The position numbers were made by a program, and so were the translations under genes. A stretch of DNA of 64,000 nucleotides, taken from the NCBI GenBank assembly GCA_013115125.1, contig JABANN010000035.1:1-64000 (forward strand), in the 5' to 3' direction. This document shows, piece by piece, positions 13,695 through 63,097 of this stretch (position 1 is its first letter; each line of letters begins with the position of its first letter). Origin of the DNA: Perkinsus olseni (Eukaryota). Under the pieces are notes generated by a model. That model searched no databases. It worked only from the letters and a program-made list of their open reading frames with translations, and was not told the DNA's origin.

Positions 13695-15472
13695 TCATAC
13701 GGCTCGGTTGGGGTCTGGTCTATCGGCCGGTAGTATAGCCGGCATTGCGGTGGTCGGTTGGCCAAGTTTACGGGTCTGGATCTCTTGCTGCAAGTCTTCG
13801 TATTCATCAGGGATCTAGTGAGGAAGGTATCTTACCTCGAACCATGCAAGATACGAAAGAGGTCACCTCTGACTGAGTTGGGCCGAACAAATACGTCAGT
13901 GTAATCTCATCCACTGTGTCCATCCTTCGATCATCCATGATATCCGGATCGATAAAAAAGAATACTGGCATGTCCACTTCCTAAACCGACCCCAAGGACC
14001 TCCACGACCGAGATGACTCCACCCGGCGCCTACCTCATGCGGCCCCAGCAGCTGCTCGTCGAAACAGAAGCACTGTATCTTATTAAAGTACAGCCCGGCC
14101 TCTAAGGGCAACATATGATACGTTGACATACCTGTACTGGAGATTGAACACGATCGCTGGAGCGCGAATGCCATACCGCTCACAACGATCAGCAAGAACC
14201 CGACTCAGCTACCCTCTATACGACTGTCAGAGTCGCGTCGTCGTCGTCGGCGGGCTTCGGGTGACGCGAAGCAGAAGAGTTACGATGAGAAATGCCGGTT
14301 GTGAGGGGCGGTACAGCGCTCCCCGAGCCGCTATCCTTACCTATGATGGGTTTGTTAGTCCTGTTTTTAGCTCGGAAGAACGCCAGAGCCGTCTCACCAG
14401 GGGTTACCTGAACTAGTGGTGGTGAGAGGAGCCTCGACAGTTGGCCGCCACCACGCATCCTCACGGCCTACGTGCAGTGTGAAGATATCACACTAGGCAT
14501 ATCCTAGGTCGATCATGGGCAAGGACGAAAAACCTCGGACGTACATAGACGGATCGCTGCTCCGGATAGAAATCCCACTTGAGCGTGCTCTGCACCGCCC
14601 CAGCAAAGGTAATCTTGATAATTCTGACAAGAAAAGACGTCATCCGCCGACCAAACCACAGCCGACCATAACCTCTTGCTAGCTTCCCCTTCCTTAGGCG
14701 GCGGTTTATACTCCTTATGTCCCACCGTCGCGAACTGAGACCGACACCTCCACGGCCGAGTTCGAAAGGTTGAGGCGACGTGGTAGATGGATACTCACAC
14801 CTCCCGTGGAACCTTGGCCCGTGGACTTGCAGTACATGTCGTACAATGGTACCGCTACGAAACACATGCCAAACATGAAAACCTGAACCAGTGGAATGGC
14901 GTCAAGGGTGGACGTAGGCGAGTGGGAATGGTTGTGAGCTTTGGCAAAGAGTAACCAGTGGGAATGGGAGAAGATACCGGAAAGTATTGAGTAATTTGGA
15001 GACACTTCGTAAGGCAGATAAGACGACTACTCCTCCCGGTCGAGGAGGAGACGAGGGCCATTGTAGTAGGTCATGAGGGCAGTATGAGGCGAGCCACAGC
15101 AGCAGCAGCAGCAGCTCACGCCAGATGACAGCCAAAGGAAAGACGTGTTGACACTTCTCGTCCGCTTATCGGTCTCCTTTTTAACCTGATGATTTACCTT
15201 GCCCTGATTATTCCTGTCCGACGATTAGACGCCCACCTTGCCGTAGAGCCAGCTGCCACTCCCACCATCTGGGGCGTGCTTCCGCCACCGCCCTGAACCG
15301 TGTATCCGTGAAGCAGCCGTTGGAGCCTCCGTTGCGAAGGCTCTTCCCAAATGGCGTATCTTAACTCCACCGAGCTCGCACAAATACGGGAGCCCCACCT
15401 CACGGTTACCAAATGCCTCTTCTCTTCTGAAAAGCTGGACGCCCTCCACCGAAGCGACTGAAGAGGCCTCAT
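13695..15472 (-). CDS. COX11: Cytochrome c oxidase copper chaperone Cox11
   Basis: FGMCFVAVPLYDMYCKSTGQG, LKWDFYPEQ, VTPGETALAFFRAKN, STYHMLPLEAGLYFNKIQCFCFDEQLLGPHEEVDMPVFFFIDP (CFCF copper motif); Arg-rich N-terminal transit-like peptide. Confidence 0.95.
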
Positions 15473-15955
15473 AGTTCAACCAAATCTACGGAAGGTGTGG
15501 TATTGCACGCATGCACACACCCGCCGTGAATTGAACTTGACGCAACAACATACCCTGACTTGATAAGGCCTCTCGAGAAAGTTGAACATCGTCGACATTA
15601 CGCGGAGACTAACATCACGACACCGCTTATAAAAAGTTCATCGTCGTCTTTCGTATCATCATTATTATTATCATCGCCACCACGCAAATGGAGTCAATTT
15701 TTTCATCATCCCTTAGAGGAGAGGGAGTCCCTCAAGAGACTCTCACAGCAACACCTGTTGCCACGGTCGGACGATACTACAAGACTACTGCTTATCAAGA
15801 CCAGACCAGCAGTCACCCCAAAAAGGGAAGGGGGCGACGTAGCCTGATTTTTTACTAGAATTAAGGACAGAATCGGGGAGGCTTGGAAAACCCGAGTGAC
15901 CTCGAGGTATGTGAGAATGATAAGATTAGAAGAAAAAAGAATAATAATATGGATC

Positions 15956-16141
15956 CTATTCTCTACTACTGCTATGACCGCGCGCCACGAAAATACGCAC
16001 GATAGGGCAACAGAGGGGCTGTCCAGTGACCGATGTCGAGGACGGCGGAGTAGAGAACCGCACACGTCGTAATCTCGAAGGAACGGACCTATAGAAGCCG
16101 TTTGTTAGACCAGAACAAGCGATAAGGACTACAAAAAGCAC
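15956..16141 (-). CDS. Possible last exon of a small RVxF-motif protein (RRVRF)
   Basis: ttctatAG acceptor then RSVPSRLRRVRFSTPP; upstream exons not resolved. Confidence 0.25.
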   Translation of the reverse strand: MLFVVLIACSGLTNGFYRSVPSRLRRVRFSTPPSSTSVTGQPLCCPIVRIFVARGHSSSRE

Positions 16142-17267
16142 AGAGCAAGCAGCAGCGAGCTTCGAAGCCGCACTGCTGCTGCTTAACAGATGAACAGATG
16201 ATGATGACTATTAATACTACTACTAATAATAATAACGTATCTTGGACCGTGGCCACCACACTCATACCGACGAATTGGCACGACGCGGATCGGGTTAAAG
16301 CCGGTCCGCGTCGATACCGCACCGAAGGACTATCAATCGTGTAAATTTGATATTGTTATGAAAGGATAATATATTACTGAAGAGGTAGAGGCAGTAAAAG
16401 ATGTTGCTGATGATGTCGTCGATAAGGCCTGTCTCGCGGTAGGGGCCGATCGCCCCTCGAGAGCCATCAACGACCACAATGTAACAACCCTGTTCGAGGA
16501 GGGCACCAGAGCGATGATCATAAGCTCTTCTACCACTGGCTGCTGAGAGCAGCCCGAATCTGCTTTTGAGAGTGATCACTCCGGGCTTCGCTCCGTCGAG
16601 CAATAACGAGAAAATGGAACAGAATGAAGACCAGTACTCCGAAGGTTGGAGCAACAGCGGTACCGAAAGAAGGGTCTCTCGGTGAACCATGCTGCTGCTC
16701 GGTAAAACAACAAAAATAGTAACCACGACGCCACAGTCCTCGTCCTCGAATGTCGACAAGCTGTTAATCCACATTTATCTACCGTGGGCTGCTAAGAATA
16801 GGTTCCCAGTAGGCCCTTCATTGTGTAGAGAGAGCCTCTAAATCGGTATCATCTTCATCATCATCAACAACAACATCACCATGAGCATTCTTCTAGCCGC
16901 ATGCTCGCCACGATGTCGTCGTTGTGCTTGGGGACTCCGATTATGGACTGCTGGACGGGTAACTACCCCAAGGGGGGCAAAGGAGATACAACAAAGGTAG
17001 ACAGCAGCAGAGGCAGAGCAGCAGCTCGCCCAGGAGGGCGCCAAGTAAACAGCATAGTATAGAGACTACTACTACGATTGGGCAATACTACACTGTAGGA
17101 TGGAGTAGCCGCACGACCACTGCTGAGTATGATGATAAGAGCAGAGAGCTGGAGTGTACCAGCATGGTGCAATGCACCAGACGTCCTTCAAAGCCTTTGT
17201 GCCGTCCTCGTCGATCGTCATACACGAGACAACGACGACGACATCCAAGCGTCGGCAAGTGCTACTA

Positions 17268-17798
17268 TTAGAACGCATAAACTCCTCCTCTAGCGACAGC
17301 CTTGGTAGCTGTTTGTTCTGCCAACTTTTCCGCTTGTTTTTCGTCAGGAGCACCATCATAGTCCGCAGTTCTGCCCAGAGAGACGGAGATCAGTCGATCG
17401 TCGTCAAAGGTGTACTCGACTTGCTGTGGACGGAAATGGACACTCGCTCCGCGCGGACGGGTATCCTCGTCGTAGTCCTCGTAGATATCACCGTATATTG
17501 ACGCGACTGTGGAACATAGCGAGACTGATGACGGTGAGTGCTTCTCGCACGACGCTAGTGACTGTGGTGAATCTGATAGAAAAACCGTAAAAACCAGGGG
17601 AGGCACCCTTGACCCAGGCAGCAACTCACCAACGGTGAGCTCGTTCTGACTAAGCATACTATCAGCCTTCGGAGTTTCCTTCTTCAAAATGCTCCTCCTC
17701 GAGGCGACTGGCTTACTGCCTGTACGCCCTCGGGTCATCCTATAACTACTTGGGCGGACCGGTTTGTCCGGGACTGCCGTACGACTGAAAAAAGACAT
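17268..17798 (-). CDS. Small disordered protein with SILK and RVxF-like motifs (putative PP1 interactor)
   Basis: ATG at 17798; RRSILKK then RGASVHFRPQQVEYTFDDD. Confidence 0.65.
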   Translation of the reverse strand: MSFFSRTAVPDKPVRPSSYRMTRGRTGSKPVASRRSILKKETPKADSMLSQNELTVGELLPGSRVPPLVFTVFLSDSPQSLASCEKHSPSSVSLCSTVASIYGDIYEDYDEDTRPRGASVHFRPQQVEYTFDDDRLISVSLGRTADYDGAPDEKQAEKLAEQTATKAVARGGVYAF

Positions 17799-18378
17799 GA
17801 TTAGCGACAAAGCAGGGAAGGAGTGGTAGCAGCAGAAGGCGACCGTCCTACCATCCTCGCATAGCCGGCTTGAAGCACCCAAATACACGAGAAAGCATAA
17901 ATATAAAAGTAGTATTAAAATAAGCAAGCTAACATGGACGATGAACAGTACCACACTCAGCGGACCAGAGATCATCGAGAAGCCGCCAAGGCTGAGAGGG
18001 GTTGTCGTTAAATACACAGTAGCTGAAGAGAAAAGAAGCAAAGGGGGGAAGAAGAGAATCCAATACGGTCTGTAATAGCATCCGCTAACGACACAAGCAG
18101 GGAGACAGGATGGACACAACGAGGACCCTAGGATATGATGAAGCCAACAACACTACACGGAGGAGGCGAAGAGGTAGCGAGGTGGAGTTATAATCCGTAG
18201 GATTCAGCAAAGGGGAATGGCGACAACAAAGACGGTTAATAATGGTATAAACCAGAGAAAGGTCATTGCGGTCGTTGGTAGGCTCATCATCATCAGAACA
18301 ACAAAACCAACGACCCTGAATGGTATAATCGTAGCAGCTGGCGGCGGCGGCGCGAGTAAGCGCTCTTATACGGCAAGT

Positions 18379-18996
18379 TCACGAACCATTGACGTGGTGA
18401 CTGCCCAGGGAGGCGATGAGACCCTTCGGGGCCCCTTGAGCGCTCGGCAACCGATGGAAGTGAGGACGATCTACCAGGACCTCAGTATGGCTTCTTAACC
18501 GCTGGCGAACCTCTTCGGGAGGGCTCTCGCTCCCGTAAGAACAGCAGGATACCGATTCCTGGAAGTGGACCAGCGGGGCGGCCTGCATCGATTGGCTCCG
18601 TGGCTTGCTTTCCAACGCTCGATCAGCCTTCCGTATACTAGTGTCATCCGCTGATGGAAAGTGAGCTCGCCCCTCTGAACAACGAGACACATACACAACA
18701 CCGGTACTGCTGCTGCTGCGGGCCTTACTCCACCGGAGTCGCCGATTGACCTCCTCCCTGGTATGCTCATGACCCTGGGCGTCCTTAGCTCGCTCCGCTC
18801 CTATTCCCTTCGGGCCGAACAAAATGTCGAGGCACCCCGGAGTGTAGCCGCGCCTAGTTTCCCCTTCCGGATGCTGTCCACTACTAGACGAAGGTTCATT
18901 CTTAGCGCCAGCTCCGGACGTCTCTTGAATCGGAGCAACGGTTGGAGCAGTAGCTGCCTCCTGGGGATTTGGTGATGGTGCGGTAGCAGATCTCAT
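18379..18996 (-). CDS. Small disordered protein with VxF-x8-Y motif (putative PP1 interactor)
   Basis: 205-aa ORF containing APLVHFQESVSCCSYGSESPP. Confidence 0.55.
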   Translation of the reverse strand: MRSATAPSPNPQEAATAPTVAPIQETSGAGAKNEPSSSSGQHPEGETRRGYTPGCLDILFGPKGIGAERAKDAQGHEHTREEVNRRLRWSKARSSSSTGVVYVSRCSEGRAHFPSADDTSIRKADRALESKPRSQSMQAAPLVHFQESVSCCSYGSESPPEEVRQRLRSHTEVLVDRPHFHRLPSAQGAPKGLIASLGSHHVNGS

Positions 18997-19315
18997 AAGA
19001 ACAGAACTAACTCCAATAGCTGCGCGAGCAATGGAAGCATAGACGTAAGAGCCTTCAGGCGTCTCCAGGGCATAGAGACTGTCTCACTCAGGAGACCCTT
19101 CCGGACGGCAGTGGACAAACTGAACGGTGGAATCCCCCCGCTCAACTGATGCGCCGCCATGACCCCAACAGAAGCTGCCCCTTCCCGACCAGTACGAAGG
19201 CCCCAACACAAATCAGTCACTCATCGTTCTGCACTCAGGACTGTAAGAAAAATCTGTCGTTGAGCGGAGCGAAGCTGATACGACACAATAACGTGTAGCC
19301 TTATTATTAAAGTCA

Positions 19316-19351
19316 TCATAATACTGGAAGTGGTCATAATACTGGAAGTGG
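19316..19351. repeat. 18-bp tandem duplication (TCATAATACTGGAAGTGG)x2
   Basis: Direct reading. Confidence 0.9.
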
Positions 19352-19420
19352 AGCAAGAACAACAATTAGGTGGACATATTTCCATTCACGAATGATACAC
19401 TCGAACCACTAAGAAATCGG

Positions 19421-19768
19421 TCACCGGACCTCAAACACAACTCCTAGACGATCGCTATTCTTACCAACACGACAGCGGAGACTTCGGCGGGCTTCTCTCG
19501 GATGGCCCCGTTGAGAGTCCCGGAGCGGCTCCAGTGTGCGGAGGGTTCGCGGATAGCTGCGGCCCGATGAGCGAAGCATGGCAGCCGATTCATAGGTGAG
19601 ACGATCCGTGATGGGGTTGAACGACACGACCCTGGAAGTGCTACTGGCTTCGGACGATGATGAACTGACACTTGTATCATCACCTAAGGGCGGTGGTAGT
19701 ATGGTGGCCAGTGCATGATTGCCTACACTCAGTCCACCGCTGGCAGAGGAAAGGGGCGACGAGATCAT
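19421..19768 (-). CDS. Small Ser-rich protein with RVxF-like motif
   Basis: SSSSEASSTSRVVSFNPITDRLTYE. Confidence 0.55.
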   Translation of the reverse strand: MISSPLSSASGGLSVGNHALATILPPPLGDDTSVSSSSSEASSTSRVVSFNPITDRLTYESAAMLRSSGRSYPRTLRTLEPLRDSQRGHPREARRSLRCRVGKNSDRLGVVFEVR

Positions 19769-20665
19769 CACACTAGCAAATCGATCATTCTTAACGAGGG
19801 GAAGCTAGCACAAATCGCGAGTGCTTCCATCAAGCCACTACGAAAGCGGCAACATCCTTGTGATGCGCCAGCCGGCTGCTGCTGCTCCCTCGCTCACGTC
19901 TAAGAAGGGATGGTCTCTTGTCAACGTCCGATCTTGAGGGAAGCGACCTGATCAGCGAGGCCACTTAAGACCTGGGCAGCATTCCCAGCCCACTGGCGGA
20001 CTCCCCCCTCGCCAAACGCCCGCAGGGTAGGAGCCACGCCTCGAACGGTGGACACAGTGGGCTACTCCCACTACTACGGTGGATACTCCCTAGTAGCTAG
20101 TAATGGCAATATTCAGTCACTACTACTACTACCCCTGCGCAATCTCCTTGTTGGCTGTAATGATGTGTAGTCTCCTAAGGACCAATAAGATACATGACTT
20201 GATAGCAGCTCTACAAGTAGGCGTCGAGTTGGGTCTGATGATGATAGAGGGAGACCATGTACGGCAAGACGCGGCATGACGTAGGGAATACATATATAGC
20301 AACACAGCATTGTGAAATGGACAGCCGACTTCCTCTGTAGTAAACAAACGCAAAATCCCAATATTCAATTCGAGTGTGAAAACCCTTGCGTAATACTGCT
20401 GTTGCTGATGGGTCTCCGAAGCGGATCGTTTGAAGCGACATGGGAGGTAGGGGTAGGGTTTGGTCGGGCTCAACAAGACTATCACAAGGGCAGCGGTAAC
20501 TACGGTTTCAATGATGGTAGTTGTAATAGTAGCGATCTTGATGATGAAAAAATGAGGGAAACGGTGAAAAACGGAGAGCCCCCTATACAAGAAAAGGACA
20601 ATGATTGTGTGGCTGACTGCCACTTACCTACCACGTAATAATAACGGGAGGAAGAGCTACCGGAC

Positions 20666-21320
20666 CTAGACAACAGCCTTCGCGAGGCGGTCGCAGTAGC
20701 GGTTGTGGTGCTTTATTCGATACTTCGACGGTGTGCACAGGAGCTCGAGCTCACAGGAGCGACGGCCGCGCGAAGAGAAGACCGATTCCTCCAAGCGTCG
20801 GTGGTGGTGCGATGGAAGCTCCTTCAAGTAATAAGATATCTCTACGTTAGCATTGAAGTGTACTGAACGTCCGCGACCCCGGGGAAGAGGAGGGCTGCTC
20901 ATAGGTGCCACGATCTCACCATGGCCTAAGATAGAGTAAAAGATACACTCGCCATTCGACCCCGCAATCACAACGCTCTTTGACGAAATTGTGAGCGTAG
21001 GGGTGAGTTGATCCGACGTAATACCACATTTCTCTCCTAACGTGCGGCCGCCATCAGCATCCTCATCATCAGCCTTCCCGCTGGGGTGGTCCACATCCCT
21101 GAAAATAAGCCATGAGGGTACGGTGAATGTCGACACAAAGCAGCGCTCACTGATGCAAAGGGACGGCGGCGGCGAGGTCCAGGCCCTCTCCCAAGGCCAG
21201 AGTGGAGGAGGAGGACGACAGGAGTTTGTAGACGAGTTGGAAAAGTCCGCGAACGGGACGAAACTGTCCTGAATGGGAGGAGGGCCCCTCAAGGGAGCTA
21301 GAACCAACAGGAAGGGTCAT
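20666..21320 (-). CDS. Small protein with RVxF motif, at least two exons
   Basis: Exon 1 MTLPVGSS..RGLFQLVYKLLS; GTgagc...ttttcAG intron near 21099-21150; later RGRGRSVHFNANVEISYYL. Confidence 0.6.
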
Positions 21321-21686
21321 GAAAGTGATGAATCTGAGTGGAGCCAGCGGACCTGCGCCAACCAGCACAACAGTCGTTCCAATTGATACATGCTGGTTGA
21401 AGCTATCGAGTACCATAGGCTTGTGACACCACACTCATGCTGTGGACTAGTCAGGTTGATAGCAATGAATGACGGGAAAGTTGGTAACATCCCTTCGTGA
21501 TGGTCATTAGGCCGCATCGAGGCGGACGACGATACAGGAGAATCTAGGACGATACCACACCATCAAGAACATGTCCGAAACACAACCAAGTGGCAGAGTC
21601 CCACCAACCCGCCAAAAAGGGACCTCCCGAGCAGTAACCTCACATTCGGAGACCACCTTGCTGTTCGGCTGAGAAACACTGTTAGG

Positions 21687-22665
21687 TCATGGCTGAATCA
21701 TAATTGCAAGATATGGACGTAGCGAGACTATGACCATACCGTATTTACCACAATAATGAATATCAAAAATAATAAATAAAGAGGAATAATAAATAAATAA
21801 AATAATACCACTCCAACTTGAAATAGACTTTAACTCAAGGTAATAAGGGTGTAGTAGATCAGTAGCACTCACTTCCTCGAACGACATGAAAAAAGGATTG
21901 AGCCAAAACCATGAACCTTGTGGAGCCCTCGCCTTCAACAACTGAGAGGATCGTCCCCTACCATCACTACCCTGACTCTCTGTGACGGACCATTCAGCGT
22001 CTTCTCCCCATGCCACCGAACGCATCCCGATAGCTACTACCGGAGTAACGTATGGTGAGGCCACAACAGAGATGAAGCACTGAACACAAGCAGGCGACGG
22101 TCAAGAGAAAGCCGCTACAAGGTGATGGGCGGCTGCCAAGAGATGCCGACGATTCAACCTATGATAACCATCTCAGTGGGCCGGAACCCTTTCCGGAAAA
22201 TTATCATCATGTTGACGAGTATCATTTGCGAACAGCCAAAAAACAGCAACATCGAGACCATATGACCGACAAATGAGTTGTGGGACTTCACTACAGACTG
22301 AGGCAAAAGACGACAGCCCAAGAGCAGCACGACGGCCACCCTTACGCTGGCCTAGCCAACGATGCAACAATACCACCCTAGAAAACAACCGAGAACAACA
22401 CTGTTTTTCGTAGCATTGCGGATAGGTCGAAGATGCGGTACTGATGCACCACCATGCTGGATCCAAAAGGGAGGCGTCACATACGACGCGCTTAAACGAC
22501 CGACCTCCTTCACGGCCGCCGCCAACGCAGCGGCACTGGCGGAAGAGCTTAGCGTATCCAGAGGTTTCAGATTGTGATTTTCGAGTTTAGTAGACACTAT
22601 TGGTGATCGCGAAAGAGAATGAGATGAGGGAGGCCTGGGGGATAGGGGACTTGCAACAACACCAT
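21687..22665 (-). CDS. Probable multi-exon small protein with RVxW motif; boundaries uncertain
   Basis: MRSVAWGEDAEW in ORF 21687..22064; upstream low-complexity coding-like segments. Confidence 0.35.
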
Positions 22666-23067
22666 CTCCGAGAGATCCTCACCAACCTCAACACGCCGCC
22701 TGACGAGTACTATACTCGAATGGCGACGGGAGACCTCTTCAGGACAAACCAAAATAAAGCAAATTATACACAGCCATAAAAAAGGAGCCAACGCTGCAGA
22801 ATTGTATGGAGGCACTGAAACGGCCTCCAAGGTGACGGGAGTGGTCGAAATGGTCAGGCCGCACTACTGTGCCTGCTAGATTCCACCAAGGGCAGCAGCA
22901 GGCGGCAGCAGGGGCTTTCACACTTCAGCGCACCCCTTGGCAAAATGATATCCGAGCGCGTAGCGTGGACGGTGAGAGGTAGCCAGTGAGTATAGAACAA
23001 CAAAGGGGAGTGGTACGGAGTCTTGAACGACTATCAAAAAGAGAACAGCGACATAGAGTATCTACAT

Positions 23068-23805
23068 TTACGAGACGACACTGCGAACCTTCCTGTCCAC
23101 CGAGACTGATGCCATGGTACGATCCCTCCTCAGTGCAGCCACTTCGTACCCACTCAAGGGCCTCAGGAACACATCGCTCATCACAGTCGTCTCTCGACGC
23201 CTCGGCCGAGCCAGGTCTGCCGCATACGGCCACCTTGGAGCAGGAGTCCGGTACTGCCGCCGGACCGGCGACCGTTTCATTCTTCTGCCACTCGCCTTGC
23301 TCGTGAGGCCAGTGATCTTGTGGTGACAGCTTCTCAGTCGTGTCACCACATCACCAGCATCGTATTCAACCACGTTAGCCACCCCTTGGAAAGTGACCTT
23401 TTTCGAGCGGGTTGGGTCTCCCTCCAATACAGCCGACAAGGCGCTCAGAGATGAGGAGTGCGAGCGAGCGCTGCGAGACGCGGACGCCTCAGTGGACAAA
23501 CTCCTTAAATCATCGTCGTCATCTGACACGAAGACTCTCTACAAGCCCTCAGCCGCCATCCCCGTACCTGCAGTATCGTCCTCGGCGAGACACGTCCGAG
23601 TTCTCTCAACTTTGCCCAGGGTCAGTCCCGCCAGTCTTGCTTGCTCTTTACCACGGCTCCTAGGGCCTCCTACTGGCGGTAACGAGGTTGGGAAAATCGA
23701 GAAAGTATCGGGAGCTTCCGATGCAGCGTCGGGCTGTTGACGTTTCCGGCCCTTGAAGAAGTGCAGTACTGCCGTGAAGCAACCGGTCTGCCTGGGAACC
23801 AGCAT
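23068..23805 (-). CDS. Small protein with canonical RVxF motif, two exons
   Basis: MLVPRQTGCFTAVLHFFKG...; a 45-nt GT-AG intron removes the TAG at 23539-23541 and restores TADDDDDL; then RSKKVTFQGVANVVEYD. Confidence 0.65.
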
Positions 23806-24420
23806 ACCGGTGGAAAAGAGGGGCTGAACTGAGGGGCAGGAGAGAGTGACCACCAGCTCGATAATGATGCTGAACTCAATACGACCTGCCAAGCCGTAAA
23901 GAGGCTCCAAGTTTAGCGGAACCGCACTAGAGGGGAAAAGCGGGTGAAATTGTGTCCAACAGCGTAACTTCAAGTGCACGTGAGAACGGAGGCGACGCCT
24001 GACGGCCGGAAGTAGAGTTGGTCGTGTGATGGTATGGTTACAGGCTGGGCGCCTACGATGAGCATCTTTCCAAAACCTCGAGGGTCTCGCTGTTTCCGCT
24101 GTCAACCAAGTACCCCTCTCAGCATTCTTACCGCCACGGAATCATCCCAGGCGAGTGCGTACACGTACCTAGGAGTAGTTTGCGCGTCCAGCACGCGACA
24201 CCGCCAAGGCTGGGCGAGCGCTTTTTACATTGCCAAAGAGGAACAATTTTGGGCGAGCGAGATTTTTTATGCGCGTTAGTCTGTCTCCTGCCGGCGTTGC
24301 GACAGCTCATGATGCGAGAATTTGGTCGTCAGGTCGTCGCTCTCAGGTTGGATCTTCTTCGGCCAAGCTTGACGTACCTCCCCGGTGACTCTGTCCTTCG
24401 TAGGCCGACTGCCTTCCCTC

Positions 24421-24477
24421 ACTCTTCGATCTTCCTCAGGTAATGAGCCGCTCATTACCTGAGGAAGATCGAAGAGT
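24421..24477. repeat. Perfect 57-bp palindrome (28-bp arms, 1-nt centre)
   Basis: ACTCTTCGATCTTCCTCAGGTAATGAGC-C-GCTCATTACCTGAGGAAGATCGAAGAGT. Confidence 0.97.
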
Positions 24478-24768
24478 ATGAGATCATTATGAGCGTTTCC
24501 GGCATCTAGACTGATCACACTACGTCTAGGAACGTATCTTTTATTTCGTTTGTCACACGGAGTAACATAAGATTCATAAGGACCTTCTATCCGCGTGTGT
24601 AAGGGTGCAACCATGAGGGAGGCGGAGTAGGGAATCTCGAGGTTGAACCGCGTCACGGACAAGGAAAAAGATACCTCTCAGTCTCACTCCTGCGTACCTG
24701 TCTTGTTGCGTTGAGTCTGTCACCTGAAGGGGAGTCTATGGTTCGATATCAGCGTACACTGCCCTTGC

Positions 24769-27700
24769 ATGTCGGCTGTTGTTGACAACACTCCCCTCAG
24801 TGTCAATCGACGGGCCTCCAATACCACCGTCTACTACTACGACGACCAGAAGAAGGTCGGCTCCCAATGCTCGGGGTCCCTCTACCCACCCCCGAAACCC
24901 CCTTCGGGTCACGTCGCTGGCCTTACTGGTCACCATTCGACCCCTTCCAATGCCTCTGCTGCTGTGTCGGAGCATCTCCTCCACGGAGGTCAGTGCCCCT
25001 ACCCACCTCCTTCCGGGGGATACTGCCGCCTCTCAGGGTCAAGTACCATGCCTGGCACGCCTCACCTGGCTGCCAGCAGCAGCAACAGTAGTTGCATAAG
25101 CCCTTGCGTGCAGGCCTCTCAGCTGCCTCAAGGCTCGACTGTGGAGTACTATAGCCAATCCCTAGGTAGGCACGTCGGCCGCCACCTCCCTCACCTCCTC
25201 GTCAGGTCGTTGGATCCCCGCCAAGGTCATGTCGGTGATCCCTCCAGACGACCCCCGAGCTGGTGGAAGTAAGGTCGGCCTCGTTCACTTAGACTGCAAG
25301 CCCATGGCCAGGGTTGAACAGGTGACCATGGCCGCGGTTCGTCGGCCTCGGCATCTTTCGACAGGTCCGCTACGCTGGTCCCCCAGCGGGCATGCCTCTC
25401 TACTCTAGCGGCCCAGCCTCAGCCCCTACTCCCAACTTTATCGACGTCCCGGCGGCCTTCTCGATGTTCAACTCCCCTCCGCCTTCCTTCATCCCTGGGG
25501 GGCCATCAGTCGGCCCGCCTACTGTCAGGGTCATGCGCAGCTCTACAACTACTATTCCAACTGCAGACCGACGCTCCTCGTACATTACCAAAACCACCAG
25601 CAGGGGCTTCCAGAACCCCGGCAAGGCTGTTCAATTGTAGCCCGCAAGGCCAGTGGATACCCCCTCACACTAGTTGTTCCTCAGAATCTCGGCCAGTGGT
25701 GACAAGCTCGTCGTGAATTCTGAGGCACTCGATCTTCTAGAGGCCCTGGGACACGACAAGCAAGTGAGCGTCGTGACAGTAGTGGGCATGTATCGCAGTG
25801 GGAAGAGCTACTTGCTCAACAGACTCGTCAGAGGTAGCCAGAGAATCTCCTCTTTGTGGCATCCTTTCCACAGGTCCGGATGGCGCCGCTTCGACTGAGG
25901 GGCCACAGAAGGAGAATAAGCTCATTAATAAGCTGTTGAAGTTCGGCCGCAAGAAGGCCGACGCCGCCCATCGCCCCCCACCAGTGGTCTTCGAGACGGG
26001 CAACGAGGTCAATGCCTGCACCAAGGGCATATGGATGTACATCTGCGAGGAGGAGCTTGACGATAAAGTTGTTATCTTCCTTGACTGTGAAGGCCTCGGC
26101 TCTACCGGTCGGGATAAGACCTATGATACCAAGCTGATGGCGATGGCCCTGTTGATGAGCAGCGTCTTCATCTACAACTCCAAGGTGGGAAGGTTTGCGG
26201 GCTGTGGACGACTTGAATGTTCTTGTTAGGGCTGTCTCGATGAGACAGCGTTCAATGGCCTCTCGCTTGTATGCGAGCATGCCAAGCAGCTTATCCGAGA
26301 GTTCAACACTGAGTTCGGCGGAACTGCACCGGGAGGAGTCCTCTCTACCTCCTTCCTTTGGGTCCTGAGGGACTTCGTACTGGCATTGGAGAACGAAAGT
26401 GAGTTGAACGTGGGCCGTATAGTTCCTGGTGTAACGGTTATGATGCTGGTTTATCGTCTTCACGACCTGGGATCGATCCTCTGACAGTCCACGTTTCTCG
26501 TTTTCAGACGGGGAGTCGATCACTTCGTCGGAGTATCTTGAGAGCGCATTGCGGTCGAGAGCGAACAAAGATATCTCCAAGACAATCCTCGAATGCTTCA
26601 TGTACCGGGACTGTGACACATTGGTAAGGACGAGATCCGCGGCTCGAGGCTGACGAGTTGACGGCAGGTCCAGCCCACGATAGACGAGGGCAATCTGCAG
26701 AAGTTGGATACCATTCCTGATGCCAAGCTGAGGAAAGAGTTCATCACCCAAGTTCAATCGCTGTGCGGTAAAATATGGACCATGGCTGGGTCAAGGCCGG
26801 TGACCATCAATAAGCATGGCGGAGGCACTCCCCTCACGCCAGCAGCTTTAGCGGCGTATGTTAGGAAGGTGGGCATTATCAGGGGAGGGAGGGGGCACCA
26901 CAGGTTGCCGCTTTCCAGCTGGGGGAGCATCTGTCCAGTTCTTCCACTCTGGCGGGGTTCAGCCTCCCTTCGACCTGGGTCCAAGTTCAGCATGAAGCAC
27001 TCGCTTCTTTGATCGATAGTAAGCTTATGGTCTTCGGTGAGAGTCGAGTAGTTGCTGAATGGTAGCGCTGAGCCTGGCTCATGGGGACGAGGTTGACGGG
27101 ATGGTCGCGGAGCTGCCACTGGCAACGCGTGAGTTGGACGACAGGCTGGCAGCAGCGATGAGGAGAGTGGAGATTGAGTACAGGAGGAAGGCATTGGGTA
27201 AGGGGGAGGGCAGCATCTTCCATTTCGGCGTCATCATTCGACTGCTTTTAGGAGATGAGACTGATCAGCTTTACCAGCAGTACCTTGATGAGCTTATGCA
27301 GATGGCCAAAGCCCAAGAAGGGAGGGTCTATCCGCTCAACGACGACAAGTAGGGCGGGCTGCTATTCGATTGGTCATGGCTCTCCGACAGGGCCCGAAGC
27401 TCTGTTGAGGAGGTGGCGATGAGGCTTCTGGAGGAGGTCATGCCGGATTTGGTCCCGGGATGGTCGGAAGAGGATCTCGAGATGGTCCTGTCGGAGTCGG
27501 CTAAGCTCCTGACGGAGAAGTTACGGTGGATATTGGAGGAGATCATGACGACAACTCGAGGACCGAGAGGAGCGCGGCTTATGGTTGCGGCTCAGAAGGT
27601 CGGCCGCCCTGCCACTGAGTTCATTCGGTGATACCACTCCTTCCTCAGATCATCGAGATAAGTGGCCTGTTCGTGACTGAGTTGGATAGAAAGGCCGAGG

Positions 27701-45195: not shown

Positions 45196-46589
<1,394 letters not shown>

Positions 46590-51413: not shown

Positions 51414-54400
51414 TCATATGCTGGACGTGGATGATGATGATGATGAATTATTCAATTTCCATACACGGAATGAGCGGTCGTGAGAAACTGTGACGAACAT
51501 CCCCTCAGCCGACGGGCAAGAAGTCACACCGGCGATGGGCCCCTGACCATCGGAGACACTGTCACTCGCGGTACAGGCAACAGACTCACATTGGAATGCC
51601 GAGACGCGTACTCCCGCTGCAGCGAGGTGCCACGAAGGCTCCACACCTTCACTATGCCATCACGACCAGTTGACACAAGTCGGGAGTCTCGAGGGCCCTG
51701 GCAAGGACACTTATCAGCAGACTTGGTGATGATCCAACTCACCCGGACGAGGCTCAGGGCGGTGATCCAATCGTTGTGAGCTTGAACGCTGGCTAGGCAC
51801 TGTCGACTGCTCATCCGCATACTCACGTCCTGTTGGCCAGATATCGATGCTGGTACCTGGGCTTTGCACGATACCTTTTTCGATGGAGCATGATTGAGAT
51901 CGTCACCTCCCAAAGTTTGATGAATTTATCGCGGGAGCCGCTCACGAAATGAGACGGCCCCCACGGTTGTAGCGAGGAAACGGCGTCGAAGTGTGGGGGT
52001 TGGAAACTGAGCACTGGAAGGAGGAGACCTTCGGTCAGCTCGCCTACACTTGGCCCGTCGGAGTCCTAGTCGGGTCGGTCCACATGCGTATCTGATCAGC
52101 TCGGGCTATGATCACCGAGCGACCCCTGCTGCTGCTGCTGCTGCTGCTGCTGCTTCTAACTGTCTTCTCTCTTCCCCCAGCGAAGAGCTTAGAGTCCTCA
52201 GATGCGGCCACGGCGAAGAGGTCCATGTGCCCACTGGAAAGCTTCACGGGCTGCGGCACAGCCTCCGATGCCCTAACAAGCACACCTTCACCGTCGAACG
52301 TCGTCAACCCTGACCTACGTGGACTCCCGCTTGGTGCCCCGATCGAGCTCCTCAAAGCTTCGTAAATCATACAACTTGAGTCCTGTGGCGGCGATGGCCA
52401 CATGACCAGCTCCCCCGCTAGGCCTGCTCGAGAGTGTCAGCTACTGCGACAAGGGCACGCAGGAGATGACAACACTACACGAGAGCGACTTGGCTGATGT
52501 CCTTGTTCTCTCCCGTCACAACCGTGGCGACGCAGCAGCTGTGGGAAGGACATCCTGTAGTAAACCGATTTAATTCGCAGACAGGATGGGGTACCGCACT
52601 TTTGTCAATTATCTTAACATTATTGGCCACGGCTGCAGCCACGAGGTTCCCGTCAACAGCACACATACTCCTCACAATAACGTTCTGTCCTCCAGCTGGT
52701 ATGGGGACCGATTTAATCTGCCCAAGTGATGAGGTCCATTGCCCTCTTCGACGCAGTTTACTTGTGTTGGTCGGGCGCCAAGATCCCAAACCCGGATGTT
52801 CCCCATGCTTCCCGTCCACAGATGGAGGCTCGGCCCTTCAGTAAGGCAGCAGCTCGTGAGGAAGTAGTCGTGGGCGTCTCGTTCTCGATGAGTGCAACAC
52901 CAACTACAACACCCCAGCCGGGTTCGAATCCCACGGACTGTATATTTTCAATCGACTTTCCCCCCCCCTACGGCGCATTGGCATCATCAGCTCCCCAGAG
53001 CACCTCTCGGTCACCCAAACGAAGGTCTGCCACCGAGCCTGCGCACCAACAACTTCTCAAATCCCTCTACGCTGGTCCGCACCTTTCCGACTGAACTCGA
53101 ATGGTCTATCCACATTCTTCCGATCCCCTTCGTTCTCATTCTCGGTACTCCACTTACGGATGGGCTGCGAGCCTACAGACAGCAGATCGATCACCTTCCC
53201 GAGACGGAGCAGCACCTACGCTTGTAGTCCGCGGACTCTGTCGTTCGAGTTACTTGAGCTAGCCGTGCCCTCTTAGTCGCCTTCAGTGACCCTGCACGTT
53301 CAACCTACGCAAATCGCCTTGCGGGTTGTCTCCGCCACGGGCGACTCACCGATGATGACGAATGGCCTCGTTCTCTCTGAAGAAGTTCTCTCTCTTCTTC
53401 TGCCGTCATCAACTTCCGTCTCAGACTGACATTGATGTCCTCGAGCTCTTCGATGCGGTCCTGCAGCGCCTTGATGTGCTCCGATCGTGTGCGTGACAAC
53501 AGGGCTTCCTGGTACACTGTCTGGGACCTGGTGGCAGACCTAGCTGCTGGAGAGCAGAGCTGCTGCCTGCTAGCCCCCTACTGGAGTTCGAGAACCTCCT
53601 GACTCTCGATGTCATCCACTAGAGAATGCCTCATCCCCTTCCTTCTAAGGGGCATAAACGAAAGGCTGTCGTTGATGCTTGGAGACACGGGTGAGGTTGT
53701 GAAGGCCTGATCGGAACCAGTCTGCAGACGAGTGTGGTATCCAAGGTCGAAGCTGCCATGCCACGGACAGCTAAGATATCGACTGGGCCGAGCCTACCTG
53801 CGGTGCGTCTTCACCAACAGGAGGGGTGTCTTTATTCATGATTGGTATCTCCGAGACCTGAGAGCCCCACTGCCCCTCCGGCAACCAAAGACCCCACCTC
53901 CGTCCGTCCAGGCGTCAATTGCCTTCCCATCTCCCGACACGGTCCGCTGGCTGGAGCTGGTGAGCCTTCTCGGGAGACATCAGACGACCGTACTCCACTA
54001 CGACGACGATGGGTGACTGAGAATAGAAGGCCGCTCCCAGATTGCTACATACAGGCTGAGGAACGACGCAGATTGCAAGCAGCCAGGAAACAGATGGAAA
54101 GACCCACACAATCAACCATGTGCTTACGAGGGGTCGAGGCCTCCACCAGTTGCTTAGAAATCATTGCAAGGTCGGATATCTTTCTCTTTGAGGTGAGCTC
54201 GGATACCCTCCTGGAGAAGTCGTTCCTCAGGAGAGCCATCTTAGAGGCCTGCTCGGCTAGCTGGGATTCCTTCCTGGCGCATTGGTCGCGCAACTCCGTC
54301 AGACGGCTCTCGAGGCTTCCGATCTGCTTGCGGGCTGACAAGGAGCTTTGCCGCCACCAGAATTTCGTGGCGCGCGACGTGAGTGACCATCAATGTACAT

Positions 54401-60400: not shown

Positions 60401-61387
60401 GAGCCACAGTCCGACTGATTCCACGTTTCCCACTGGTAAAGGCGCCATTGTTAGTCGACCGAGCTGCTGAAAGATACCACTCGGAAAATCTTCGCTGTGC
60501 GCATGATGTCCATCATGGAGTGACTTACATGAAGTTGGCTCCACAACAGCCGCGGAGGGATCGAGTAGGTCTCGAATTTCCTCGTTGTAAAGCTCGATAA
60601 AACTGAAGGGAAGAATGGTCGAAAACTGCAAGCGGGAGAAGTCCCAGCGCCCCTCGCCGATTTTACTGAGACCACAGGCTGACCATTTTTTCGATGTAAA
60701 AATCGCGGGAAATTTCGGAGAATTTACGATCGTTCAACTGACCTGCACGTGAGCTCGATCGTCTCATCAGGGTTGCCCTCTTCCACTCGTCGGCAAATCT
60801 CCGCGATGACCTGACGGAGGAGGTCCGACGATTAGTAGGCTCGAAGACGCACGCGAGGGATAAGACCGGAGTCCTGGGACACGTAGCTAGCGCTGCCCAT
60901 GGTGTAGGTCTTGCCAGAACCTGGGAAGAGGAGAATGGCAGATGCCGGGATCGAACCCGGGACCTTCACCTGTTTGGCCGTATGCAATTACCGTGCAGTT
61001 GTAGCCTGCGAAAAACTGGTTAACAAGGGGCTCGATAGAGGCAGTGTAGAGCGAACCCTGAAGAGAATGGGTCGCGTGCTCATCTTTATGGCCACCGAAA
61101 GGCACCTGGTCAGAGTCTTGATCGTAGACGCGATCGAAGGTGTAGGCCTTGCTGAGTGAGGGGATGCACACGGTCCTCTCCCCGTCCACTGTTATGCACG
61201 TCGAGGAGCCACCGCTCGCCAGAGTTTCGCTAGTGGTCAAGGGCCGAACTCGGATACAGACCTATCGAGGCTCACAGAGGATTACCCAACACGCCAGATT
61301 CGCTACATTGATATTCTGGGAAGATGATGATGACGACGAATTAGTTGAATCAATTGTTGAGGATGCAGCGCTGCCAGCCGTGGGCAT
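51414..61387 (-). CDS. Kinesin-4 (KIF21-like): motor, long coiled coil, C-terminal WD40 repeats
   Basis: [123 protein letters not shown] motifs [53 protein letters not shown]. Confidence 0.88.
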
Positions 61388-61466: not shown

Positions 61467-63097
61467 CTATTGTAGAGTACAGACTGATGGCCGTTCCCCA
61501 TGCGTATCAACGCCTTCAGGAGTCGGCTGGGTCGGCCATCGTGGACACAGGTCGGGGTCCTCGCCTGAGAATTCAATCCCTCACCGGGTCATCGCAACAG
61601 TCATACTTATGTCGTGAACCATCTCCCGGAACAACTTGCCGACTTGCCGAAAATCTTTCGCCGACACGCGCCAGGACCGCATGCCTTGCTCTCGAGCGAA
61701 CAGCTCAGCGGTGTGAGCGATCTGCTGGTACCTTCCACATGAGCCTAAACTACCCACCTATTGCCGCGTTGAGGAAAAGCAAGATAGCAAGATGTCGTGA
61801 AGAGTTTGACCCCGACAGTAACCGCCTTACTTCGAGGAATCTGGGTTCAAATCACACTTGTTGGCTACGAGGTAGACGACGGGTCGAACTCGAACTCTCT
61901 TCCTCTTGAAAGTCTCCTCCATCAACAGTGCAATGTTCAACGCCTCCTCATAAGACTCCTGGCTCGTACCTGCATCCGACCGCATTTGCAGCGAGTCCGT
62001 GTATCACACTGAATCTTGATCTTTGAAGCTGTCACGGACAGCTGATGTCTATCGGCATGATAAAAATTGCATTGCACAACGGGAGTCGATGGCCGATGGT
62101 AGCTCCCATAAAGATGAGCGAGGTGTCCTCAGGAGCGACTACAGAGGGGCTGGCAACGGCATCGTAGCGAAGCGCAGCCCGCCTCACAGATCTTACTGTC
62201 AAAGACGATCATAAATCCCATGCGACCCTCCGAAACCGGACGATACCTGCCGGAGATGAAACATAGAGGGTGTCTCGCCATCCAGCTTTCGCGCTGAATT
62301 TCTCGTGAAAGACGAAGTGTTCGGTGAAGATTTTCTGTCAGCGCACGGTCGGGAGTATACCTAGCGCCATTACCGGCCAACCTTCGGAGCTTCAGCTAGC
62401 CCGAACGGGAGCACCGTCTCATCGACCTGGTCCCTCTCGATGCTCTAACGGCGGGGAGGCTGCTATGGTGGGCTGCTCGGAGCGATCTCACTGCTTGTGC
62501 GTCCGAGATGCGCCGCTTCAGGCCGAGAAAATTCTTAACATTGCGAGGGGTCATGCGACCGTTCTCGCTCAAGGTCTGAGGATGATCAAGTCAGTCGACC
62601 CTGATTGACACTAAAAAATCCGGAGACAGCGTGTCCGAGTGGTTAAGGAGGTGGACTAGAAATCCACTGGGCTCTGCCCGCGCAGGTTCGAATCCTGCCG
62701 CTGTCGTTATAATCACCAACAAAGTCCATCTTTGCTAAGTCCTCATCAAACACACCCACCTTCCCGTCCGCTCTGTAGCTCGAATACGTATCCTCGATCT
62801 CCACCATCGACCACTGATCCGCGCCTTCACAGCCTCTAGTTGACAGAACAGTCTACAACCGCAGCGGGCACTGACACGATGGTTCGCCAAGTGCACGCAC
62901 CTTATAATACAGAGTAGGATGGTCCGTCGGAGGAGTATGTGCATCAACCGCTGCGTTGTTGACCTAGTGGAAGGGGTATCACGATCATCCAACGCCTCAC
63001 CACAGGGTCTTACAAATGCATTGACCAGAGACGTCTTACCACTGCCGCCCATCCCGAGCAGGGTGACACGCAGAATCGGGCAAGTCTCGGCAGCCAT
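61467..63097 (-). CDS. Atypical Ras-family small GTPase with CaaX box, multi-exon
   Basis: LRVTLLGMGGSGKTSLVNAFV (G1), VEIEDTYSS (altered G3), GFMIVFD, ESYEEAL, VYLVANKCDL (G4), VSAKD (G5), ends PSVCTLQ*. Confidence 0.85.
62625..62706 (+). tRNA. tRNA-Ser(AGA)
   Basis: Acceptor GACAGCG/CGCTGTC, D-loop TCCGAGTGGTTAAGGA, anticodon arm GTGGA-CTAGAAA-TCCAC, long variable arm GGGCTCTGCCC, T-arm GCAGG-TTCGAAT-CCTGC, G73. Confidence 0.97.

Follow-up and report, generated by a model that had tools for sequence, protein, structure and literature searches.

The specificity of protein phosphatase 1 (PP1) comes from hundreds of mostly disordered partner proteins, which are hard to find by homology. Here we analyze five consecutive small genes, termed A to E, of the shellfish parasite Perkinsus olseni, the products of which share a motif resembling RVxF, V-x-F-x8-[YF], and may represent a lineage-specific family of such partners. 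The genes lie in a window of 64,000 nucleotides (contig JABANN010000035.1, positions 1 to 64,000), which is the whole stretch of DNA that was analyzed. Several described PP1 regulators serve for comparison. According to excerpts of PMC5005033, the RVSF sequence of Ki-67 ends at F508 and is followed by F517, the counterpart of which in RepoMan is F404, and both proteins form a beta-hairpin on PP1. The Phe-motif pocket used by these two proteins also takes F413 of human PNUTS (hPNUTS), F82 of Gm and F696 of RRP1B, and the Arg motif of hPNUTS, R420, is located 19 residues after W401 (excerpts of PMC10731240). In addition, extension of PhiPhi to PhiPhi[xF] is common (excerpts of PMC9813921) and Inhibitor-3 uses a CCC motif (excerpts of PMC10066265). 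A literature search returned nothing that mentions Perkinsus together with RVxF.

A preliminary description of the locus had proposed a local tandem array of consecutive, small, mutually dissimilar minus-strand genes that homology searches would call hypothetical. It depicted their products as disordered and fast-evolving, with only a PP1-docking motif conserved, and drew attention to an aromatic residue at the ninth position after the F, as in Ki-67 and RepoMan. The array is confirmed by RNA evidence in the form of two RNA-derived contig sets (X1 and X6) mapped to positions 13800-26300. Two raw RNA-seq runs contributed little: X21 yielded only 29 partial matches, to low-complexity DNA near 15.7 and 16.85 kb, with no usable coverage, and X23 yielded no reads on 13800-26300. 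All 15 joints listed among the 23 in X1 and X6 read CT..AC on the plus strand and correspond to minus-strand GT..AG introns of 45-214 nt; seven of these are in a Cox11-like gene (13.9-15.5 kb) and eight within the array. Genes A to E follow one another head-to-tail on the minus strand, encode 157-230 amino acids (aa), all contain small GT..AG introns, and are flanked by the Cox11-like gene and a GBP-like GTPase gene. Loose contig ends at 23837 (A), 21335 (B) and 20322 (C) run on into the antisense of the spliced leader PmaSL1, the Perkinsus sequence used for comparison (excerpts of PMC3101222), and a T-run in X6 marks a poly(A) end at 22101 (gene A). As a result of these sites, the region is divided into separate mRNAs. 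The consecutive small genes on one strand are hence backed by spliced contigs, three spliced-leader ends and one poly(A) end; with eight GT..AG introns removed in the contigs, the array comprises five separately expressed genes in series. Spliced-leader ends in public RNA contigs can thus delimit Perkinsus genes. The models of B to E match NCBI models from other isolates at 86-100% identity, and the NCBI names for the array genes in P. olseni and P. chesapeaki are, as anticipated, all “hypothetical protein”.

The shared motif was found in all five genes on the minus strand, at the places previously reported (as the last base of each F codon), with an aromatic residue at F+9 in every case. Counting positions from this F, gene A (23362..23403) carries a canonical RVxF in KKVTF-x8-Y; its residues +6 to +9 are VV-E-Y, and positions +17 and +19 are Arg. 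Gene B (20828..20869) has RSVHF-x8-Y, in which +8 and +9 are both Tyr and +19 and +20 both Arg, and gene C (19592..19633) has RVVSF-x8-Y. The motif of gene D (18535..18570) is (PL)VHF-x8-Y, without a preceding basic residue and with Arg at +19 and +21, and that of gene E (17406..17441) is (AS)VHF-x8-F, without a basic residue within the two positions before V. In the six frames of the window, the pattern V.[FW].{8}[YF] matches 18 times, about the number estimated from residue frequencies; all five consecutive RNA-defined genes carry it, though the window-wide count approximates this expectation from composition. When each protein was shuffled, the probabilities of the motif ranged from 0.004 to 0.028, with a product of 1.7e-10. 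To allow for post hoc choice of the motif, we conducted a blind search for the most improbable three-position pattern common to all five proteins, using 28 residue classes and a span of at most 14. The winner was V-x-F-x8-[FY], with a log10 P of -9.35; the best of 200 shuffled sets reached -7.23, and none attained the real score. Motif sharing is non-random. Aligning the five motif exons leaves V, F and Y as the sole invariant columns. Because the V codons differ among the genes (GTC, GTA, GTG), the motif is shared at the protein level and a DNA-level repeat is ruled out as its source. A family hidden Markov model (HMM) searched against the 1696 open reading frames (ORFs) of at least 25 aa in the window retrieved only A to E, without a sixth member.

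The five genes differ in how completely they are defined. Spliced-leader trans-splicing is mapped for A, B and C, and D and E are known from contig coverage and joints. The mRNA of gene A (22101..23837, minus strand) runs from the spliced-leader end at 23837 to the poly(A) site at 22101 and includes a long 3' untranslated region (UTR). Its coding sequence (CDS; 23805..23068, minus strand) specifies 230 aa and is interrupted by a phase-1 intron (23523-23567), the joint of which (23522/23568) is present in X1 and X6. The first 137 residues match NCBI models, which diverge after the motif; some contain an extra intron directly after it that alters the C-terminus, at a place where X1 and X6 are contiguous. 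A small codon-usage model, with D and E in its training set, favors the motif frame in A (0.13 vs -0.30 and -0.20) and, weakly, in B. The mRNA of gene B (20397..21335, minus strand; 3' end approximate) has its spliced-leader end at 21335 in X1 and X6. Its CDS (21320..20666, minus strand; 167 aa) has introns at 21099-21150 (phase 2) and 20926-21024 (phase 1), both joints being found in X1 and X6.

Gene C has an mRNA at 19252..20322 (minus strand; spliced-leader end 20322, 3' end approximate) and, in the motif frame, a CDS at 20293..19421 (minus strand; 157 aa) with introns at 19948-20132 (phase 2) and 19684-19897 (phase 1), the joints of which are in X1. This model is 100% identical to NCBI FOL46_005694. 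The spliced mRNA is open in two frames across all three exons: a 155-aa ORF begins at the first AUG and the 157-aa motif frame at the second. The codon-usage model supports neither, and the gene could be dual-coding, very young or decaying. For gene D, the transcript (18180..19021, minus strand) reflects X6 contig coverage rather than mapped ends, and the CDS (18996..18379, minus strand; 187 aa) has a phase-1 intron at 18675-18728, with the joint 18674/18729 in X1 and X6. Gene D also has a conserved RRLRW at its exon-intron boundary (18730-18744, minus strand), then GRAHF. This second RVxF-like pair is 35-40 residues upstream of the family motif, and both strings are kept in P. chesapeaki. Gene E (CDS 17268..17898, minus strand; 168 aa) has introns at 17785-17851 (phase 2) and 17573-17629 (phase 1), with joints in X1, and its model is 97% identical to NCBI FOZ62_031272. 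Some RNA contigs extend across gene boundaries: one stretch, 15567-19021, covers D and E without interruption and ends a little upstream of the Cox11-like gene, and another, 21418-22316, leads from the 3' end of A almost to the trans-splice site of B, ending upstream of it. Polycistronic precursors resolved by spliced-leader trans-splicing would look like this.

The proteins are indeed mutually dissimilar, given that phmmer produced no cross-match among the five at E<=10. Likewise, hhalign comparison of the ortholog profiles of A, D and E returned nothing, with probabilities of at most 0.7% and motifs that were not aligned to each other. Gene structure is more uniform. A phase-1 intron precedes the motif by 20-45 codons in 5/5 genes, a further upstream intron is present in three (B, C and E) and is in phase 2 each time, and in B to E the distance from the start of the motif to the C-terminus is 56-67 aa. 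On the basis of this shared structure and the tandem position, diverged duplication is the most economical reading, and A to E are most likely ancient tandem duplicates that have since diverged.

Conservation between species divides the family. When 1.84 billion representatives were searched exhaustively with a profile, nine matches at E<=0.001 were obtained, each homologous to one of A to E. Orthologs of D and E are adjacent in P. chesapeaki (FOL47_000471, 66% identity to D; FOL47_000470, 69% identity to E), and further E orthologs occur in two Logan assemblies. Profile and word-based searches detected homologues of A, B and C only in P. olseni isolates; for A and B, no orthologs outside this species were found in searches that were word-based and length-limited, so that absence is not proven. 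Identity between isolates is 78-88% for A, 86-87% for B and 94-97% for D and E. The proposed fast evolution therefore applies to A and B but not to D and E. Similarly, the motif is all that is conserved among the paralogs, whereas between the D and E orthologs of P. olseni and P. chesapeaki the C-terminal 60-140 residues are nearly invariant. The motif itself, as [VI]-x-F-x8-[YF], is present in every homologue recovered; the substitutions are V to I in one variant of A and Y to F in D of P. chesapeaki. With 66-69% identity to P. chesapeaki and an intact motif, D and E are clearly under purifying selection.

Several features are compatible with PP1 docking by the family motif. Under an ELM-style expression for RVxF ([KR]-x(0,1)-[VIL]-{P}-[FW]), the motif matches in A, B and C (3/5); gene D matches only at RRLRW and gene E nowhere. 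At the family motif, the strict rule thus holds for three genes and not for D and E, which lack the basic residue. The aromatic residue at F+9 has the same spacing as F508 and F517 of Ki-67 (excerpts of PMC5005033), as had been claimed, and the VV-E-Y of A occupies the PhiPhi[xF] position. Arg is found at +19 in A, B and D, and at +19 to +21 in all five (joint chance ~0.002, for a feature chosen post hoc). Accessory elements occur in canonical order at the sequence level: the +9 aromatic in 5/5, Arg at +19 to +21 in 5/5 and an upstream SILK in E only. This SILK (17682..17693, minus strand) is part of a seven-residue island, RSILKKE, that is conserved in P. chesapeaki and located ~62 residues upstream of VHF. 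The flanks of the motif are basic before and acidic after it.

The predicted disorder is supported to different extents. The AlphaFold2 (AF2) models of D and E have mean predicted local distance difference test (pLDDT) values of 47 and 52 and predicted template modeling (pTM) scores of 0.19 and 0.18, with low confidence at the motif residues (pLDDT <50 in D). For A, B and C, the composition is 56-57% disorder-promoting residues. The sole confident element in the model of E is a beta-hairpin, pairing 119-124 with 127-133 and including the +9 Phe, that is followed by a helix. Sequences of the PP1 catalytic subunit (PP1c) were retrieved from metagenome contigs with a degenerate PP1-specific octapeptide pattern; this gave 12 full-length ORFs, of which 11 were aligned and two match PP1 structures at E ~1e-200. 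Judged by motif grammar, the most probable role of the family motif would be PP1 docking, a tentative reading to which we give slightly less than an even chance.

A number of observations weigh against this reading. Random ORFs of the window, 18,371 residues in total, contain 49 matches to the RVxF expression, a background of 2.67 per 1000 residues; because it is so common there, a bare RVxF match carries little weight. A basic residue before V-x-F in 3/5 proteins is about what is expected from their R/K-rich composition (an estimated ~0.28 per protein). The +19 Arg moves to +21/+22 in D of P. chesapeaki and in B of other isolates, and none of the five proteins has the KiR-SLiM found after F517 in Ki-67. 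The conserved block of 60-140 residues in D and E fits an extended PP1-binding domain or any conserved function equally well. Moreover, sequence statistics give no support for paralogy of A to E, and the coding frame of gene C is uncertain, making it the least certain of the five. Finally, Pfam, PDB profile and ESM Atlas searches link A to E to no known PP1 regulator. Pfam IPP-2, PPI_Ypi1 and PP1c_bdg (PPP1R15) were not detected for ORFs or full-length homologues at E<=10, a search in which HMMER filters drop most very weak matches. PDB profile searches with three ortholog alignments gave no matches at E<=10, and in the ESM Atlas the protein of gene E matched clusters at chance level (score at most 0.80) and D gave no usable match. 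Sub-threshold Pfam matches to DUF1067 (E 0.06), DUF4578 (E 0.041) and a PEX14-like family (E 7.5) were dismissed.

The following mechanism can be proposed. Each of the five genes is matured to its own mRNA by cis-splicing, with spliced-leader trans-splicing shown for A, B and C. The genes are most likely tandem duplicates that diverged until only a short motif and the phase of the preceding intron revealed their common descent. The retained string is ([RK]-x0-1)-V-x-F, followed by hydrophobic residues at ~+6/+7, the +9 aromatic and, in the range of about +19 to +21, an Arg. It would dock the PP1 catalytic subunit: V and F would enter the RVxF pocket, and the aromatic would occupy the Phe pocket to which RepoMan/Ki-67, PNUTS and RRP1B bind. 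The upstream SILK of E may provide a second PP1 anchor. Through their divergent remainders, the members would differ in target or in regulatory effect. An extension of this model, which we consider unlikely as a whole, is that PP1 subunits arise here in a birth-and-death “nursery”, in which duplicates keep the RVxF-Phe-Arg string as the remaining disordered chain drifts towards new targets. Under such a model, D and E would be old members fixed across Perkinsus species; A, B and C would be young members, confined to P. olseni and 12-22% different between isolates. If correct, it would offer a rare, directly observable case of new PP1 holoenzymes arising. Should A to E bind PP1, no earlier candidates for lineage-specific PP1 regulators would precede them in a perkinsid, and they would be an unusually clear case of a docking motif outliving the complete divergence of tandem paralogs.

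The alternative that survives best is that A to E are a lineage-specific tandem family of disordered proteins in which the motif is real but has a role unrelated to PP1. It could be a docking site for another partner, in which case it would represent a new short linear motif, or the first hairpin strand for folding upon binding or self-association. This account is a real possibility, though well short of an even chance. It accommodates a motif that is non-random and yet lacks the RVxF basic residue in D and E, a hairpin in E that holds the +9 Phe in the AF2 model without any partner, and a conserved block in D and E far longer than a short linear motif; it also agrees with the failure of every tool to tie the family to a PP1 regulator. 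However, no other well-characterized docking motif built on V-x-F is known to us, and a number of independent PP1-type features come together in the family: the SILK of E, the spacing of the +9 aromatic, the Arg near +19, and flanks that are basic before and acidic after. Readings as calcineurin PxIxIT, LIR, PIP-box or ABBA motifs were dropped, with fewer than 3/5 proteins fitting.

It is improbable that there is no family at all, that is, that motif sharing is a coincidence of composition or that non-coding transcripts are among the genes, C being the foremost candidate. The choice of motif followed inspection of the sequences, no pairwise or profile similarity can be detected, A, B and C have no homologue found outside P. 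olseni, and gene C is open in two frames, neither of which is favored by codon usage. These points are outweighed by the pattern search, where none of the 200 shuffles came within two log units of the real score, and by the occurrence of the motif in all five consecutive RNA-defined genes. Matching intron phases in 5/5 genes, the purifying selection on D and E at 66-69% identity to P. chesapeaki, and the in-frame codon bias of A and, weakly, B also speak for a coding family.

The extent of the family was examined at two additional loci that the preliminary description had listed with the array, RSVAW (22008) and RRVRF (16054). Both strings are present, but neither is followed by a +9 aromatic or matched by the family HMM. 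The ORF containing RSVAW (21687..22064, minus strand) is between the poly(A) site of A and the trans-splice site of B and is found only in the read-through contig 21418-22316; chimeric NCBI predictions use it as an exon. The ORF with RRVRF (15956..16141, minus strand), for which the contigs give no splice or spliced-leader evidence, is part of the 1.7-kb transcript that follows the stop codon of E. Both loci are in intergenic or UTR transcript and are not family members. In the public models FOL46_005695 (409 aa) and FOZ61_005799 (396 aa), A, the RSVAW ORF and B are combined, and one of the two also takes in part of C. The 409-aa model keeps the 99-nt intron 20926-21024, which the RNA contigs show removed. 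These fused A-B models are contradicted by the RNA evidence, which corrects them: separate mRNAs have been fused into one protein (20666-23805, minus strand). That the motif exons are instead parts of a single long multi-exon gene, or of two, in which the motif is repeated, as these two models and the contigs crossing intergenic stretches (e.g. 21418-22316 and 15567-19021) might suggest, is very improbable, since spliced-leader acceptors at 21335 and 20322 and the poly(A) site at 22101 separate the mRNAs, the intron kept by the 409-aa model is spliced out in both X1 and X6, no A-B or B-C joint is among the 15 listed of 23, and read-through contigs are expected from polycistronic precursors in a trans-splicing organism.

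The surroundings of the array were also surveyed. The window has a G+C content of ~52% and contains only 14 ATG-initiated ORFs of at least 150 aa, which marks it as intron-containing eukaryotic DNA. Protein searches assign it to P. olseni: all named matches to the array genes come from this species or from P. chesapeaki. The Cox11-like gene (13850-15480, minus strand) has seven small GT..AG introns (49-209 nt) and a spliced 171-aa ORF of the Cox11 type; an upstream 114-aa ORF in another frame suggests that a junction or the true start is still missing. On the other side of the array, the GBP/atlastin-like GTPase gene (24769-26226, plus strand) is divergently oriented and matches Pfam GBP with an E of 5.4e-10 over 25783-26226; its RNA depth in X1 is ~40, vs 260-2800 for the array genes. 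The AT skew of the plus strand is 0.12-0.19 over 14000-24000, exactly over the minus-strand gene block, and is negative from 24 kb; it may be a transcription-associated strand asymmetry. Further features of the window are a tRNA-Ser(AGA) (62625-62706, plus strand), exons for a kinesin motor (60890-61261), a nitronate monooxygenase (46110-46589) and a WD40 protein (51527-51925) on the minus strand, and a CAP-domain exon (1547-2092) on the plus strand.

With respect to genome organization, A to E resemble the trans-spliced tandem arrays of dinoflagellates and perkinsids: they are arranged head-to-tail on one strand, their intergenic stretches are transcribed, and A, B and C carry a PmaSL-type leader. 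Dinoflagellate arrays are usually composed of near-identical copies of one gene; in contrast, A to E are mutually unrecognizable apart from the motif.

As PP1 regulators, the proteins would combine traits of several known systems. Like Inhibitor-2 and Inhibitor-3/Ypi1, they are small and predicted to be disordered, and E has a SILK N-terminal to V-x-F as well as a conserved C-terminal helix. They differ in spacing, the SILK of E being ~62 aa before V-x-F, and no element of the HYNE type was seen in A to E. Two Cys follow the motif of D closely, at +6/+7, and Inhibitor-3 uses a CCC motif (excerpts of PMC10066265). The position of that CCC motif is +17 to +19. RepoMan (CDCA2) and Ki-67 are similar in having a V-x-F core with an aromatic nine residues after F in a disordered context. 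An acidic residue after the +9 aromatic is found in A, C and E. RVxF is followed by a hairpin in RepoMan and Ki-67 and by a predicted one in E, and their Aurora-B-regulated RVSF/RVTF has Ser or Thr as x, which is also the case in A and C (excerpts of PMC5005033). However, the KiR-SLiM, given there as FDxxLP(P/A)N(T/S)PL(R/K)(R/K)Gx(T/S)P, is absent from A to E. RepoMan and Ki-67 are also large chromatin proteins, as opposed to the 157-230 aa of the Perkinsus proteins, with which they share no sequence homology. A to E are hence not assigned to the Ki-67/RepoMan, Inhibitor-2, Inhibitor-3 or PPP1R15 families, because searches for the defining features of each did not find them.

A further parallel is with PNUTS-type regulators that use an RVxF-PhiR-PhiPhi-Phe-Arg arrangement (human and Leishmania PNUTS, spinophilin, RRP1B). 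The Perkinsus proteins do not have TFIIS or other domains, and their Arg is not strictly conserved in orthologs. At the sequence level, the elements occur in the same order, and the aromatic at +9 in A to E compares with spacings of 9-14 in the known cases (excerpts of PMC10731240 and PMC9813921). R420 of hPNUTS is at +19 relative to W401 (excerpts of PMC10731240), as is the Arg of A, B and D, and the non-basic first position of the PNUTS motif (TVTW) is comparable to those of D and E (excerpts of PMC10731240 and PMC9813921). By analogy, A to E would work most like small disordered regulators of the RVxF-PhiPhi-Phe(-Arg) type.

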